Assembly: GCA_963755915.1 (NCBI GenBank)
Contig: CAVWLP010000002.1
Location: 2,432,001 to 2,496,000 of the forward strand
DNA: 64,000 bases
Origin: an uncultured Phycisphaerales bacterium
Lineage (GTDB): Bacteria > Planctomycetota > Phycisphaerae > Tepidisphaerales > Tepidisphaeraceae
Reading direction: 5' to 3'
Below, piece after piece: positions 7,065-56,702 of the stretch; the first letter of the stretch is position 1, and each line of letters begins with the position of its first letter. The translations under genes and the position numbers were made by a program. Below the pieces are notes generated by a model that was given only the letters and a program-made list of their open reading frames with translations, ran no database searches and was not told the DNA's origin.

Positions 7065-7394
7065 ATGACGACCCGAAGCCTGCCAATCACCGCCCTGGCC
7101 GCACTTTCGATTTGCATTGGCTGCGTGGCCCTGGCTGATGACATGCCCGCGATGCAGAGCCAAAGCTCCGATCCCGCGACTCAACCCTCAATGCCCCCGT
7201 TTCAAGCCATCGATCTTCACAACACGATTTGCGTTGTCAGCGGTGACGCGGTCGGCAATTCCAATCTCGTAGAGGTTTATGACGGCAAGATTTATCACCT
7301 CTGTTGCCCCGATTGCCACAAGGATTTTGAGAAAGATCCCGCCAAATACGCCGCCGCCGTTGCCGCGAATCCCGGCAAATACGGGATAAAGTAA
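7065..7394 (+). CDS. Secreted YHS/TRASH-like metal-binding protein
   Basis: Signal peptide, then CVVSG and YDGKIYHLCCPDCHKDFEKDPAKY. Confidence 0.8.
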   Translation: MTTRSLPITALAALSICIGCVALADDMPAMQSQSSDPATQPSMPPFQAIDLHNTICVVSGDAVGNSNLVEVYDGKIYHLCCPDCHKDFEKDPAKYAAAVAANPGKYGIK

Positions 7395-51870: not shown

Positions 51871-53619
51871 TCAGGCGATTGTCTTTTCGACTTCGTCGAT
51901 TCCCGCTGCCCCTTCGGCGATAAGGCGGTAGCCGCTCTCCTGGAGCGAGATGTATCCCTCGGGGGTCAGCGCCTTCTGGCAGGCTTCGATCGTGGGGCTC
52001 TTCAGGATAGTGTCGCGGAGCTTGGGCGTGGCGACGAGGATTTCAAATATGCCCCGGCGGCCGAAGTGACCCGTGCCGAAACATCTCTTGCACCCCTTGG
52101 GGTAGTAAATCTGCTTCACATTGGCGACGCCGGCCGCGGCGAATTTCTTCTGCTGATCGGGCGTGACCGGCTTGGCGACCTTGCAGTGAGGGCAAAGCTG
52201 GCGGACCAGTCGCTGGGCGACGCAGACGTGAAGGCCGGAGGCGACGACGTATGGTTCGACGCCCAGGTCGAGCAGCCGGAACATGCCGCTGATCGCCTCG
52301 CGCGAGTGGACGGTGCTGAAGACCAGGTGCCCGGTCATGCCGGCCTGCACGGCAACGCGCGCGGTTTCGGCGTCGCGGATCTCGCCGACGAGAATGACAT
52401 CGGGGTCTTGCCGCAAAACGCTGCGGAGGAGCGCGGAGAAGGAATTGCCCTGGGCATCGTTCACGGGAATCTGGGTTACGCCCTCAAGCTGGATTTCGAC
52501 GGGGTCTTCGATGGTAACGACGTTTCGCTGGCTGATGTCGATGTCGCGGAGAATAGCGTAGAGCGTGGTGGTTTTGCCTGAGCCGGTGGGGCCGCAGACG
52601 AGGATCATGCCCGCGTCCTGCTCGGCCGTGCGGCGCAGAATTTCCCGCGCCTTGGCGGGGAGCTGAAGGTCATCGATGTGCAGTGGAGCGTTGGCGGTAT
52701 CGAGAACGCGGACGACCAGCTTCTGCCCGTGCATTGCGGGGGCGAAACTGACGCGATAATCGACCCGGCGATCGACAAGGCCCTGTGCCGTTTTCGTGGG
52801 GACTTTGGCGCTGAAGTGGCCCTCCTGAACGATGTTCCGCTGGGCGATATCGATGTCGGACACGACCTTGACGGCGGACAGGACCTTGACGCCGAGCTCT
52901 TTGTTGAGATGGGCCGCATCGACCATGAATCCATCGACGCGGATGCGGACGTGAACATCGTCCATCTTCGGCTCGACGTGAATGTCGGTGGCCCGGCTGC
53001 GGAAGCAGACCAGCAGGATGAGGCGCAGGATGTTGATCGCTTCGCCGACGTCTTTCTTGGGGTCGGCGGGATAGGCGAGCTTGCCGCGGGCGTTGATGAG
53101 GGCGATCTGCCGATCGGTGAAGGTGCGGTCGGCAAGCGCATCGGCGCGTTCGCGGAGCTGGCGTTCGTATTCGTTGGCCGGTTCGGAAGCTGGGGCAGAG
53201 GCTTTCTTTTCTTCGTCCTCGGATTCCTCACCATCGACGACGAGGTCGGCCAGTTCGGACATTGCAGTGTCGGCGGCCTGCTTGCTGGGGGCATTGCCCG
53301 TCACGCGGGCGACGGGGACGATGAGCTTCATCTCCGTGCCGCCGATTTTGATGACATCGCCGGCCGCCATGGCGGCCTCGCCGCGCAGGGATTTGCCGTT
53401 CAGGAGCGTTCCGTTGCGCGATTCCAGATCGCGAATGCGCACGCCCTCGGCGTCTTTTTCGATGACGCAGTGGAACCGGCTGGCCAGCGGTTCCTCGATG
53501 ACCAGCAGGTTGGTGAAGTTTCTACCGATGGTCAGCGCGCCGGCTTCAAGCGGAACCTGGCGTGTTCCCTTCGAATCCTTGATTTCGAGGTACGAGCTTG
53601 GAACGGCGTTTTGGGGCAT
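51871..53619 (-). CDS. FHA-domain GspE/PilB-family secretion/pilus ATPase
   Basis: FHA: TIGR...ASRFHC...DLESRNGT. ATPase: ATDIHVEP, GPTGSGKTTT, TIEDPVE, LRQDPDVILVGEIRD, TGHLVFSTVH, CPHC/CKRC. Confidence 0.92.
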   Translation of the reverse strand: MPQNAVPSSYLEIKDSKGTRQVPLEAGALTIGRNFTNLLVIEEPLASRFHCVIEKDAEGVRIRDLESRNGTLLNGKSLRGEAAMAAGDVIKIGGTEMKLIVPVARVTGNAPSKQAADTAMSELADLVVDGEESEDEEKKASAPASEPANEYERQLRERADALADRTFTDRQIALINARGKLAYPADPKKDVGEAINILRLILLVCFRSRATDIHVEPKMDDVHVRIRVDGFMVDAAHLNKELGVKVLSAVKVVSDIDIAQRNIVQEGHFSAKVPTKTAQGLVDRRVDYRVSFAPAMHGQKLVVRVLDTANAPLHIDDLQLPAKAREILRRTAEQDAGMILVCGPTGSGKTTTLYAILRDIDISQRNVVTIEDPVEIQLEGVTQIPVNDAQGNSFSALLRSVLRQDPDVILVGEIRDAETARVAVQAGMTGHLVFSTVHSREAISGMFRLLDLGVEPYVVASGLHVCVAQRLVRQLCPHCKVAKPVTPDQQKKFAAAGVANVKQIYYPKGCKRCFGTGHFGRRGIFEILVATPKLRDTILKSPTIEACQKALTPEGYISLQESGYRLIAEGAAGIDEVEKTIA

Positions 53620-53656
53620 GGGGTCTGGTCGTTACATATTATAGGAAAGAGAAGAA

Positions 53657-53739
53657 ATTGCCGAATGCCGATTGCCAATTGCCGAATGGGGGAAGGGCCG
53701 CTCCTTCATTCGGCAATTGGCAATCGGCATTCGGCAATA
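53657..53739. repeat. Inverted heptamer array (TTGCCGA/TTGCCAA)
   Basis: attgccgaatgccgattgccaattgccgaatg ... cattcggcaattggcaatcggcattcggcaat; related tracts at 17341-17373 and 46081-46106. Confidence 0.75.
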
Positions 53740-53742
53740 TCC

Positions 53743-54552
53743 CTAATCGCCGCTCAGCTTCCATTTCGGACATTGGCCGAAGAATCGGCACGGATTCTTG
53801 TAAAAGATCTCACCGGCTTCCTTCTCGCCGTGTCCCCGACGGCGGTATTCCAGGAGGGTGTCGATCAGCATGTGGGGGTGGGAGTCACCCCAATCGCTGG
53901 CGCTGTTAACGCATATTTGCTGGGGGCCGTATTGCTCGAGGATATCGACGCCGCGCTGGGGAGTGACCTTGCTGACGGGGTAGATGGTCAGGCCGCACCA
54001 GAAGCCGGCGTCGCGGGCCATCTGGATGGTGTGCTCTTCACAATGGTCGATCAGGACGCGATTGGGTTGGATTCGCCGGTCGTTCTTAAGGATGTCGCAG
54101 ATGATGGCGGTGCCTTTGTGCTTGTCCTGAAGGTGGGGGGTGTGAATGAGAATGAGCTGGTTGGTCCGCGCGGCGAGGTCGACCTGCTCTTCGAAAATGG
54201 CAATTTCGTTCAGCGTATTTTTATGAAGGCCGATCTCGCCGATGCCCAGGACGCGGGGGTGATCGAGCAGCGGGGGGATCAGGCGGATCACCTTGCGGGC
54301 CAGCGAGACGTTTTCCGCTTCCTTGGCGTTGATGCAGATCCAGGAGTAGTGGTCGATCCCGAAGCGGGCAGCGCGGCGCGGTTCAATGTCGGTAAGATGG
54401 TGAAAATAATCCGAAAAACTCGACGCGGAAGAACGGTCAAACCCGGCCCAGAAAGCCGGCTCGGAAACGGCCACCACGCCGCTGCGGGCCATGAAGAGGT
54501 AGTCATCCGTCGTGCGGCTGACGCAGTGAATGTGCGGATCGATCAGCTTCAT
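53743..54552 (-). CDS. TatD-like metallohydrolase (EboB-like)
   Basis: DPHIHCVSRTTDDY, EPAFW, GIGEIG, IHTPH, IDH, NSASDWG. Confidence 0.85.
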   Translation of the reverse strand: MKLIDPHIHCVSRTTDDYLFMARSGVVAVSEPAFWAGFDRSSASSFSDYFHHLTDIEPRRAARFGIDHYSWICINAKEAENVSLARKVIRLIPPLLDHPRVLGIGEIGLHKNTLNEIAIFEEQVDLAARTNQLILIHTPHLQDKHKGTAIICDILKNDRRIQPNRVLIDHCEEHTIQMARDAGFWCGLTIYPVSKVTPQRGVDILEQYGPQQICVNSASDWGDSHPHMLIDTLLEYRRRGHGEKEAGEIFYKNPCRFFGQCPKWKLSGD

Positions 54553-54794
54553 TTCGCCTGGGACCTGCGGTAGGGCGGCGGGGGAGTCTGGTCGGAGAAG
54601 ATCATCTGGACGCGACGGGCGCGATCGGGAACCGCATCAAGTAAGACGGAGATCGCCTCTCGAAGTTGCAGGAGGCGCGGGTCGGTGGCGGCGGATTGGG
54701 CCCGGTCGAGACGGTCCAGGTCGGCGGCGAGGGAAAGACACCGCCAGCGCATTTCCAGAAGTACTTCGTCGGAAGCCATTTTTTCTCTCGGCAT
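54549..54794 (-). CDS. Small hypothetical protein translationally coupled to the TatD-like gene
   Basis: LEMRWRCLSLAADLDRLDRA...DRARRVQMIFS; ATGA overlap. Confidence 0.7.
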   Translation of the reverse strand: MPREKMASDEVLLEMRWRCLSLAADLDRLDRAQSAATDPRLLQLREAISVLLDAVPDRARRVQMIFSDQTPPPPYRRSQAK

Positions 54795-54869
54795 CGCATA
54801 ATTGTACGGCTGCTGACTGGAATTCGCATTTTTGGGCGTTAAAATAGTCCGGTCGCATCGGGGATCTTT

Positions 54870-55192
54870 GCGATTTCCGAGGCGGCGGCGCGAAGCCGAG
54901 TACTCCCGGATTTGCGCAACGGCGCCCGGAAAGGCGTTTCCGGGATTGGGAGCCCGGCGGCGAGCGAAAGCTCGCGACGGCTTGGCAAAACCTGTGATGG
55001 ATGCCGCCGGATTTGGTGTGCGTCCTGACGAAGAAACTGGAGGTGATCCGTGACCTATTCTGACTGTACGTGTGGGCTGCTGTAAGCAGCTTTCGCGGGT
55101 GAGACTCCCGCGATCCACGCAGCTGCTTCATGCAGCTCACAGCAGCTAAAGACTGCGAGAAGCCCGGCTCAAAAGGCCGGGCTTTTCTTTTT
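54870..55192 (+). ncRNA. Candidate structured RNA containing a micro-ORF
   Basis: Dense hairpins, GGAGGTGATCC, 11-codon ORF 55050-55085, terminal terminator. Confidence 0.4.
55157..55192 (+). terminator. Rho-independent terminator
   Basis: GAGAAGCCCGGC-loop-GCCGGGCTTTTC followed by a T run. Confidence 0.75.
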
Positions 55193-55241
55193 CGTTGCCT
55201 CATACGATATAAACAGGGCGATCGCGTACTGAGTCGACCCG

Positions 55242-55507
55242 ATGAGAAAATCAAAAAGGAAAACGAGACCGCTCACGGCGAAAGAATTTGACGCCATGCA
55301 CGATGCCGGCGTGGATTTGGCGGAAATGTTGACTGGTCCAGGGGCCGGCCCGTTAACCAGCAGATTCGCCGGGTAAACTTGGATTTTCCGCAATGGATGA
55401 TCAACCAGATGGACCGGGAGGCAAAGCGCCTGGGGGTAACGAGGCAATCGATCATCAAGGTCTGGATCGCGGAACGATTGGAATCGCTGCCAAAAAAGAT
55501 TGCCTGA
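55242..55507 (+). CDS. CopG/BrnA-like RHH antitoxin, orphan (frameshift near 55330; absent from the ORF track)
   Basis: Manual: AKEFDAMHDAGVD...RRVNLDFPQWMINQMDREAKRLGVTRQSIIKVWIAERL. Confidence 0.75.
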
Positions 55508-55510
55508 CGA

Positions 55511-56702
55511 TCATTTCAAGTCGATCTTTCCCCACGCCCGCCACATATATCGCTGTGCGAATTCCCAGATGACGACCTTTTTGGCGGTGAGGATAGCGGG
55601 ATTGCTCGCGAGCATTTGCCTCGGCGCGTCGATGGGGCCGGCGTATACGCCGATGACCTGGACTTTTACACCCAGGCGCGACATCAGATCGTCAACGAAG
55701 CCGCAGCCCTGCTCGGAAAAGTAGAGCGAGAAGCTGTCGCCCACAAGCAGGATGGGCGCGTCATTGCCGGCGATGAGGGGTTTGCCGTCTCTTTGCAGGA
55801 CCTGGGGACTCTGGAAGTGGTTTCGCGGATACTTTGTGTTTCCCCAGCCCATTGAAAGATTCTGGGCCAGATCCCCGGCAAAATCGAGCGTGTACTGAGA
55901 ACGGAAAAACTCGGCCTTCGGCATGTCCGGGGTCAGCGGTCGAATATGATCGGAAACAATATCGGCGACGAGCAGGCGGCCGGGGAGGGACCAATGCGTG
56001 TCGGTGGGTAGATAAATGGGCTGTTGGGCGCTGAGGCGCGCCTGCCAGAGCGCCGGGGCGAGATCGATCACATCGATGCCGGCGCTACGCGCGTGGTTGA
56101 GCCAGTCGGAAAATCCGGGGGGAACCGCCGGGCCGAGCGAAAGGCGGTAGTCGGTGGCAAGCTTGTCGGGATAGATTTCGAGCTTGTCGGGGATGGGGAG
56201 AAGAACCAGGCGGATGTTGCGCGTCGAGCTGTTGTTTGAGGCTCAAAATCGCGGGCATGATGGTTGAAGCGGGGGAGGGGGCGGGGTCGTTGAGCGAGAA
56301 AGAGTTGTAGGGCCGAAGTTCTTCGTCGCTGAAGAGCCAGCCGTCGCGGGCGAGTTGCACGCCGCGCGGGGGGATGATCCCGCCGGTCATTGCGTGCCAA
56401 AACGTGTGCCGCACCCAGCGGTCGAAACGCGATTGCTGGGTGAGATTGCTTTCGAACTGCTTGAGTGAATCCGCGGTGGGAAATCGCGCCAGCAGGTCCT
56501 GAAACTCTGATCGCCCGAGGACCGTCTCGTCGTACCAGGTTTGATAGATGCCGGGAATGCAGATGCCCAGTAAGAAAAGAATGGCAACGGCAAGGGCAGT
56601 GGTACGCCCGATCTGGCCGGCCCCGGCGTGTGGAACCTTGATCGCCGGTACGTCGGTCGGCACATTTGGGCGAGGGAACGGAGATGGGTGATGGCTCGAC
56701 AT
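55511..56702 (-). CDS. AlgJ/AlgX-like SGNH O-acetyltransferase (frameshifted)
   Basis: N-terminal TM, RDGWLF, YLPTDTHWS, LLVGDSFS, VVIWEFAQR. Confidence 0.8.

Follow-up and report, generated by a model that had tools for sequence, protein, structure and literature searches.

Between a divergent 76-codon open reading frame (54549–54779, − strand) and a split BrnA-like antitoxin gene (55242–55507), the window, by which is meant the whole 64,000-nucleotide stretch of DNA that was analyzed, contains on its + strand a region (54818–55192) that is an uncatalogued, stand-alone structured RNA gene with a promoter-like site and a terminator of its own. The RNA is approximately 340 nt long in the window and approximately 450 nt in most relatives, and its gene is single-copy in its own genome. 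The + strand is predicted to fold with an energy of −168.2 kcal/mol compared with a mean of −138.8 kcal/mol for 100 dinucleotide shuffles (z = −6.68), none of which was as good; folding of the − strand is weaker (z = −5.11). From 5′ to 3′ the parts are a covarying 5′ domain, an open A-rich linker, an 11–13-nt perfect complement to the 3′ end of 16S rRNA, a start codon at a distance of 0–1 nt, a frame of 6–12 codons, two hairpins possessing the same strand sequences (hp1 and hp2), and the terminator. All features described below lie on the + strand, and all of the sequence strings quoted by the initial annotation of this locus are present in the window at or near the positions it assigned to them.

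The promoter-like site, TGGAAT-N16-TAAAAT (54818–54845), was read by eye; a consensus promoter scan returned 0 promoter-like sites and left this one unflagged. At the same position the relatives of the same genus align as T(T/G)GAA(T/A)...GATAAAATA, and other genera display TTGAYC...TATAAT-like boxes. The strong terminator proposed by the initial annotation was recovered by a terminator scan as an intrinsic terminator (55157–55192), consisting of a 13-pair stem (55157–55187) and a T-run. A stem with a T-run occupies this position in all of the relatives, and the stem sequences differ.

Parts of the stretch are contained in 20 public runs, and the contig results presented here derive from four RNA libraries produced in four studies. 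Contig cover extends over 54868–55159, with contigs at 54895–55159 (X2), 54868–55061 (X6) and 54870–55064 (X8), each with 0 differing letters, and at 54868–55084 (X7) with 1 differing letter. Many short contigs are located on the conserved core (55038–55092), where the summed word depth in X8 is 3410. These contigs document presence in RNA libraries and not a mapped transcript; assembled contigs reveal neither strand, true ends nor level, and RNA libraries may include DNA. The flanks (54500–54839 and 55180–55500) were without contig cover in all four runs. Three contigs starting at 54868–54870, taken with the bare flanks, provide at most a weak hint of the transcript ends, which plays no part in the argument. 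The promoter-like site and the terminator support the stand-alone unit that the initial annotation had suggested, and contigs from four RNA libraries match it.

A search of the whole window against Rfam 15 (4227 families) gave no matches at gathering score. At E ≤ 10 the interval 54700–55300 produced sub-threshold matches only, most of which overlap the terminator, as does the best of them (27.6 bits against a cut-off of 55 bits). Nor was there an Rfam match on the RNA in any of six long-form relatives. ARAGORN found no tRNA or tmRNA genes in 54000–56000. An identity with RNase P RNA, tmRNA or SRP RNA was excluded since all three map at other loci of the genome, the tmRNA as an RF00023 match of 137.8 bits. 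The RNA has short motifs in common with the FMN riboswitch, with 5S rRNA and with the T-box; none of these likenesses found Rfam support even at E ≤ 10, and they were rejected. Because none of the 4227 families match, an undescribed class of noncoding RNA with a ribosome-binding site, one of the options raised in the initial annotation, is a fair description of this conserved and structured RNA; the clear Rfam hit that would have removed the novelty seen by the initial annotation is absent. In the literature covered, no paper turned up that concerns an RNA of this kind from Tepidisphaerales or Phycisphaerae.

BLAST located the RNA in 21 of 41 related genomes, including all 12 of its own genus. 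A 25-base pattern matches 43 species genomes, the titles of which designate Tepidisphaeraceae, Tepidisphaerales, Phycisphaerales, Phycisphaerae or Planctomycetota MAGs, the only exception being a 2.5-kb contig that was binned under Bacillota. R1, a covariance model built on the 3′ half of the RNA, matches 84 of the 141 genomes of the order (~60%), representing 46 of 76 genera, and 43 of the 72 genomes that are at least 90% complete. Each of the matched genomes carries one match, the sole exception being split across contig ends. Under stricter filters R1 gave no match in 57 of the 141 genomes of the order, many of which are incomplete MAGs, from which it follows that the RNA is probably not essential. 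Outside its own family, R1 gave a single weak match in 130 genomes.

A strict pattern (GGAGGTGATCC-N18-40-GCTGC-N3-7-GCAG) was found in 55 of 401 genomes of the class (Phycisphaerae according to their record titles), spread over nine families, against 0 for the reversed-pattern control; in the sample of 144 genomes representing other classes of the phylum it matched none. At least eight of the nine families hold real-looking matches, a start codon being absent from the single match in family f12. Where full sequences of other families were read, the order of parts is the same: promoter, a structured 5′ domain of approximately 200 nt, A-rich linker, ribosome site, mini-frame, hp1, hp2 (in most), linker, and terminator. 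In one genome (G075) the promoter, 3′ domain and terminator are kept, and the ribosome site and first codons are lost; the copy may be a dying one, or else the 3′ domain may work without translation. Another genome (G014; locus L015/L128), which contributes one alignment row and one tallied genome, is flagged as unpublished and is the sole basis of no claim. Several of the relatives carry REP-like palindromes inserted at two loop positions.

The structure of the 5′ domain was assessed with an alignment (A3) in which 44 pairs were tested on 25 long-form sequences. Its cells are paired in 90.6% of cases, compared with 33–47% when the partners are slid by 1–3 columns, and 26 of the 44 pairs show changes on both sides, where shuffles give 11.6 and none out of 500 reaches 26. 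Homologues across the class and covariation, by both of which the initial annotation had proposed to judge the RNA, are thus at hand. The first hairpin, P1 (GCGCGAAGCCG-AGTACTCC-CGGATTTGCGC; 54888–54917), is predicted from the fold and is optional in the family, where relatives possess a GUACUCC-type hairpin, a CAGAUGCGGAUCUG-type hairpin, or none. Both types of P1 loop complement parts of the ribosome site (GCGGAUC with GAUCCGU, and ACUCC with GGAG). As regards a pairing between the two, P1 is absent from several members, and the sole informative double change, in L018, is A-A.

Hairpin P2 (CCCGGAA-AGGCGT-TTCCGGG; 54925–54944; helix 1) comprises 10 pairs, five of which are changed on both sides, with 98.4% of cells paired and an invariant AGGCGU loop. 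It is followed by the PA/P3 arm (54952–54986; helix 2), made up of GCCC, GGCG, the hairpin GCGAGC-GAAA-GCTCGC, GACGGCT and TGGC, in which seven of 14 pairs are changed on both sides. Its closing helix, PA, joins GCCC with U/GGGC and exhibits three compensatory double changes, and within the arm GGCG lies opposite GACGGCU in an invariant asymmetric internal loop. P3 is present in the window in a short form, a 6-pair stem capped by GAAA; most relatives have in its place a branched extension of approximately 100–140 nt, the AGUA/GAA junction of which resembles a loop-E/sarcin-ricin motif. Among the stems listed in the initial annotation, GCTGC/GCAGC, TCGCGGG/CCCGCGA and AGCTGC/GCAGCT hold, and two are not conserved pairings. 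The first of these two, TCCCGGA/TCCGGGA, gives way to P2, which covaries in relatives; the second, CCGGCGGC/GCCGCCGG, is confined to the window and its nearest relative, and relatives instead pair GCCC (54952–54955) with TGGC (54983–54986) around the GAGC-GAAA-GCTC hairpin.

Between this arm and the ribosome-binding site the fold predicts a further hairpin, P4 (54999–55025), the length and sequence of which differ in every alignment. With a 5′ domain that is conserved, covaries and looks aptamer-like, placed ahead of its ribosome-binding site, the RNA has one feature of a riboswitch. Unlike in a riboswitch, the only frame that follows has 6–12 codons and encodes an unconserved peptide, and no gene with a ligand-related function is seen under its control.

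The 3′ domain was examined in a second alignment (A1), in which 29 pairs were tested on 38 sequences. It is 95.1% paired and mostly invariant, with covariation confined to a T-loop-like hairpin and hp2. Hairpin hp1, GCTGC-TGTAA-GCAGC (55076–55090), has an invariant stem (55076–55080 with 55086–55090). Downstream of it lies the T-loop-like hairpin TCGCGGG-TGAGACT-CCCGCGA (55093–55113; helix 5), with seven pairs, three of them changed on both sides (CG 23 / UA 15; GC 18 / AU 13 / CG 2), and a loop that reads U-G-(A/C/U)-(G/A)-A-N-U in all 38 aligned sequences. A T-loop is closed by a stem and has U as its first and A as its fifth residue. The loop at 55093–55113 has both of these residues and its stem covaries, so that the T-loop-like arm of the initial annotation survives in its consensus (U-G-N-R-A-N-U) and its covarying stem; its reach is narrower, a motif test having found the hairpin only in loci of the window's family.

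Hairpin hp2, AGCTGC-TTCAT-GCAGCT (55121–55137; helix 6), has the same strand sequences as hp1; it is 97.4% paired, with one pair changed on both sides. A second hairpin of the GCUGC/GCAGC type is found 3′ of hp1 in most of the distant families examined, and the spacer between hp1 and hp2, GAACGUG, is conserved in several families. The 3′ domain (55064–55145) is predicted to be closed by pairing of CTGT (55064–55067) with GCAG (55142–55145), in an ambiguous register, CUGU/GCAG or CUGACUGU/ACAGCAG; this closing pairing is invariant in A1, and one compensatory change occurs in a divergent member. Helix H1 (GUGUGG/CCACGC) is weak, at 78.6% paired and with no double changes.

The ribosome-binding region (55030–55052) comprises A-rich GAAGAAAC, an 11-nt Shine-Dalgarno sequence, GGAGGTGATCC (55039–55049), and the start codon GTG (55050–55052). 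As the initial annotation had noted, GGAGGTGATCC directly abuts the GTG of the frame MTYSDCTCGLL, the TAA of which is inside a hairpin loop, and is the exact complement of the 16S 3′ end, which we verified against the 16S rRNA of the same genome (...GGATCACCTCCTTT). This 11-mer occurs seven times in the 6.6-Mb genome, including the 16S gene itself and the RNA described here. It is invariant in all 38 aligned members of the family, and across relatives the complement to the 16S tail measures 11–13 nt. In 91% of 67 RNAs its predicted openness exceeds the average of the RNA (0.47 versus 0.34 unpaired).

The mini-frame (55050–55085) has 11 codons and ends at a TAA (55083–55085) in the loop of hp1. 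Across the class, a start codon follows GATCC by 0–2 nt in 48 of 51 distinct pattern matches (GTG 43, TTG 3, ATG 2); the remaining three have no start codon and look unrelated. The first in-frame stop falls in the hp1 loop in 40 of these 48, just before the stem in six, which form a subgroup of one family, and elsewhere in two. All three stop codons are used, and the frames that enter the loop-stop tally have 9, 10, 11 or 12 codons; over all relatives the frames span 6–12 codons and are not hydrophobic. Stop triplets in the hp1 loops (n = 47) are in frame 0 in 41 cases, frame 1 in five and frame 2 in one, a bias that is in part inherited, related sequences not being independent; despite this inheritance, the four different frame lengths argue for repeated selection. 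The class-wide matches are the more telling ones because the pattern required no start, stop or frame.

Within the window's family, 36 of 45 distinct sequences start at GTG and end in the hp1 loop, nearly all after 11 codons. Nine of the 45 fail the stop-in-loop test, among them L052, which by eye does end in the loop. In seven sequences of the same genus the frame is shifted after codon 6 or 7 and ends at the TGA of the T-loop-like hairpin, and in L020 it ends at a TGA still further downstream. The exact stop position is therefore not obligatory. The family uses all three stop codons and accommodates in-frame insertions of 21, 42 and 36 nt, and by our own count indels between start and loop are only modestly enriched in multiples of three.

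One could regard the site as a decoy for the ribosome or the 16S tail that is not productively translated, in which case the 11–13-nt anti-anti-Shine-Dalgarno sequence would do no more than hold 30S subunits or the free 3′ tail of 16S rRNA, with an incidental frame. In favor of this, the invariant complement greatly exceeds ordinary Shine-Dalgarno sites in length, most starts are GTG, the weaker codon, and contigs of the conserved core reach a high summed word depth in RNA libraries; furthermore, very long Shine-Dalgarno duplexes slow the departure of ribosomes. A pairing site alone, however, needs no start codon, yet GTG, TTG or ATG is found at fixed spacing in 48 of 51 matches, start codons are substituted only by other start codons, and an in-frame stop is located at the hairpin in 46 of 48. 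For these reasons we hold a pure decoy to be rather unlikely.

The encoded peptide is a second candidate for the functional product. If this were a micropeptide gene, the 11-residue product (M-T-x-x-D-C-x-C-G-L-L in the window's family) would be functional and the folds would be untranslated regions. Most members of the family do keep M1, T2, D5, C6 and L10, and the frame survives the three in-frame insertions. On the other hand, the conserved codons ACC, GAC and TGT display no synonymous change in 45 distinct family sequences, which points to constraint at the level of the RNA, whereas the other positions change radically, taking residues as different as S/C/F/Y/L, T/M/K/R and G/E/W/R. The peptides of other families, of 6–12 residues, are unrelated (e.g., MLHDIGGLL, MTQNRGWLL and MVNSRKVSLR), the seven frame-shifted sequences of the same genus read differently after codon 6 or 7, and the conserved C-terminal G-L-L is the mere translation of the hairpin strand GGGCTGCTG. 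Unrelated peptides between families, together with frozen synonymous sites within one, indicate selection on the RNA and on the geometry of start and stop and not on the peptide; the micropeptide gene considered by the initial annotation is accordingly a decidedly unlikely explanation.

Its further suggestion, a type I toxin mRNA, has in its favor a small frame with a strong ribosome site within a highly structured RNA. Type I toxin–antitoxin systems combine a hydrophobic toxin of approximately 20–60 residues with an antisense RNA. The frame described here has 6–12 codons, is non-hydrophobic and varies in sequence, the genome has one copy of the gene, and folding of the − strand, which is the weaker one, showed no antisense partner; we give a toxin next to no chance.

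At the loci of the family the usual divergent neighbors of the RNA are the 76-aa ORF, a gene for a TatD-like hydrolase and one for an FHA-GspE/PilB ATPase, which are syntenic in most. A functional link of the RNA to these three neighbors was rejected because the 76-aa protein does not co-occur with the RNA: the protein is present in 117 of 141 genomes, including those of one genus with RNA matches in 0 of 5, was not found in 11 of the 84 RNA-bearing genomes, and is sometimes encoded on another contig. When neighboring genes were compared across families none was conserved, and the downstream genes differ between loci. It follows from these variable surroundings that the RNA is an independent gene and no leader.

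A cis-acting leader, be it a leader-peptide attenuator or a riboswitch, for a gene downstream of the terminator has in its favor the attenuator-like layout of Shine-Dalgarno sequence, short frame, alternatively pairing hairpins and terminator, and it is from this layout that weak sub-threshold Rfam matches to Thr_leader and the rnk leader arise. The likeness to the trp, his and thr leader attenuators includes the ribosome-binding site, a frame of approximately 10 codons with its stop near a hairpin, consecutive hairpins with strands that can re-pair (here the 3′ strand of hp1 with the 5′ strand of hp2), and a terminator at the end. The differences weigh more heavily on this explanation. The RNA stands alone, without a conserved operon downstream on the same strand; the downstream genes vary among loci and are often on the opposite strand, the next + strand feature in the window is the split BrnA-like antitoxin, and several relatives have a −10-like box past the terminator. 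No run of regulatory codons for one amino acid is seen in the frames, and the terminator is a separate hairpin approximately 70 nt past the stop that has no conserved pairing with the frame region and no conserved complement to hp1 or hp2. A large covarying 5′ domain and an 11–13-nt Shine-Dalgarno sequence also set the RNA apart from the attenuators. A cis-acting role is in our opinion very unlikely.

The reading that we prefer, with a probability of roughly one half, is that the RNA exerts its effect when ribosomes load onto it and translate a mini-frame that is itself noncoding-like. The extreme Shine-Dalgarno site would capture ribosomes, which would read the mini-frame into hp1, and the cell would make use of the ribosome loading and short translation itself and not of the peptide. 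Such translation would remodel the 3′ hairpins, hp1 and hp2 being able to re-pair as one alternative hairpin: since the two have strands in common (GCUGC/GCAGC), a ribosome on the 5′ strand of hp1 would let its 3′ strand pair with the 5′ strand of hp2. Translation could also occupy ribosomes, and the extreme Shine-Dalgarno sequence with its GUG start is equally compatible with a ribosome-holding role. The 5′ domain may serve as a sensor or as a module for binding a partner. The evidence establishes the gene, its conservation, its structure and the conserved arrangement of start, frame and stop; actual translation, the switch and any output are inferred. The shifted frames of some members, the copy in G075 that has lost its ribosome site, and the 57 of 141 genomes of the order that gave no match count against this reading.

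In kind, the RNA would be a translation-coupled regulatory RNA that matches no Rfam family. Its nearest counterparts in presumed mode of action are leader-peptide attenuators and the mRNA-like part of tmRNA, and it fails the defining tests of both. With tmRNA it shares a stable structured RNA with a short frame of approximately 10 codons, and in tmRNA, too, the frame terminates within a hairpin loop, that of helix 5, which is of the GCAG/CUGC type; in contrast to tmRNA it has no tRNA-like domain, and it possesses a canonical Shine-Dalgarno sequence and start codon in place of trans-translation. The dual-function RNAs RNAIII/hld, SgrS/SgrT and SR1/SR1P are likewise stand-alone structured RNAs containing a small frame. 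Their peptides are conserved and functional and their RNA parts base-pair with known targets, whereas the peptide described here is not conserved. The bar minigenes of phage lambda, in which a strong Shine-Dalgarno sequence precedes a frame of two codons and the effect arises from translation itself, are comparable in having a very short frame behind a strong ribosome site; they differ in the length of the frame (2 codons versus 6–12) and in lying outside any conserved structured RNA.

The comparison with 6S RNA has two sides, identity and analogy. In favor of a divergent housekeeping RNA, such as a 6S RNA missed by the Rfam model, RF00013, the 6S model, gave no match in the genome at E ≤ 1, and the RNA is conserved, has a single copy and occurs in RNA libraries. 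RF00013, however, gives a match in only 5 of 14 control genomes, so that its silence means little; the fold is multi-branched and not a rod with a central bubble, and 6S RNA has no reason to keep a geometry of start, frame and stop. Such an identity is highly improbable.

The analogy is a functional one only. 6S RNA is an abundant RNA that mimics a substrate, the open promoter, in order to occupy a machine, and the RNA described here is also single-copy and conserved and presents an idealized substrate site, in this case a translation-initiation region. In a bolder reading, that of a ribosome-directed decoy or sensor, an abundant RNA might stand to the ribosome as 6S RNA stands to RNA polymerase: the idealized initiation site, with its Shine-Dalgarno duplex of 11–13 bp, weak GUG start and mini-frame that runs into GC-rich hairpins, would capture or meter ribosomes, or report the capacity for initiation and termination, and the covarying 5′ domain would be a gate controlled by a ligand or protein. 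We regard this as a doubtful, though possible, proposal. If true, global translation regulators of a new class, specific to Phycisphaerae, would be at hand.

Bacterial RNAs that are large, conserved and stand-alone and yet belong to no assigned family are seldom encountered, and several of the earlier ones proved to have unexpected functions. The present one joins two features that usually occur separately, a covarying, riboswitch-like fold and a frame that is seemingly selected for being translated and not for its product. For annotators it represents a new RNA gene to be masked, the locus being otherwise called intergenic or mis-called as a hypothetical micro-protein. The class has cultured members, and the hypothesis is hence testable. 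Should the RNA act via the ribosome, it would constitute a new mode of translation regulation or sensing in planctomycetes of soil and peat, which are poorly studied and environmentally abundant.

A natural variant of the RNA, L091, occurs in another genome of the order (G075:C66:29420-30180), and in this shortened copy the 3′ domain is fused directly to hairpin P2 and the beginning of arm P3. The remainder of the 5′ domain, the Shine-Dalgarno ribosome site and the first codons of the mini-frame that follows it are missing; the promoter-like boxes and the terminator are retained.

In several other relatives, REP-like GC-rich palindromes of the type GCGGAGGGCTTGCCCTCCGC, single or doubled, are inserted into loops of the RNA at two positions. 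One position is within the mini-frame region (loci L004, L009, L012, L014, L016, and L052), where the phase of the frame is preserved in five of the six relatives, and the other lies 3′ of hairpin hp2 (L013 and L015). At L052 a long perfect palindrome, probably a repeat element, is also found just 3′ of the copy of the RNA (7194-7320); each of its strands gives plant-miRNA-like Rfam hits that are sub-threshold. A typical Tepidisphaeraceae-type copy is present on a 2.5-kb contig (L039; JBLNDH010000285.1) in a MAG labeled “Bacillota,” a placement which is probably a binning error.

A search of the whole genome to which the window belongs (81% complete) with the 6S RNA model RF00013 found no 6S RNA at E ≤ 1, using a model that is insensitive, since it registers in only 5 of 14 control genomes.

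Divergent from the RNA lies a conserved gene string (window 51871-54779, minus strand) of a 76-aa ORF, a TatD-like hydrolase (PF01026), and an FHA-domain GspE/PilB-type ATPase. The 76-aa protein, carried by 117 of the 141 genomes of the order, has no match in Pfam or NCBIfam and belongs to no known family. Downstream of the RNA, a BrnA-family antitoxin appears to be split across two frames (window 55242-55507, plus strand): the second ORF (55379-55507) matches NF047399 (E = 5e-18) at profile positions 37-70 only, and the ORF at 55242-55376, in a different frame, would be the N-terminal part.
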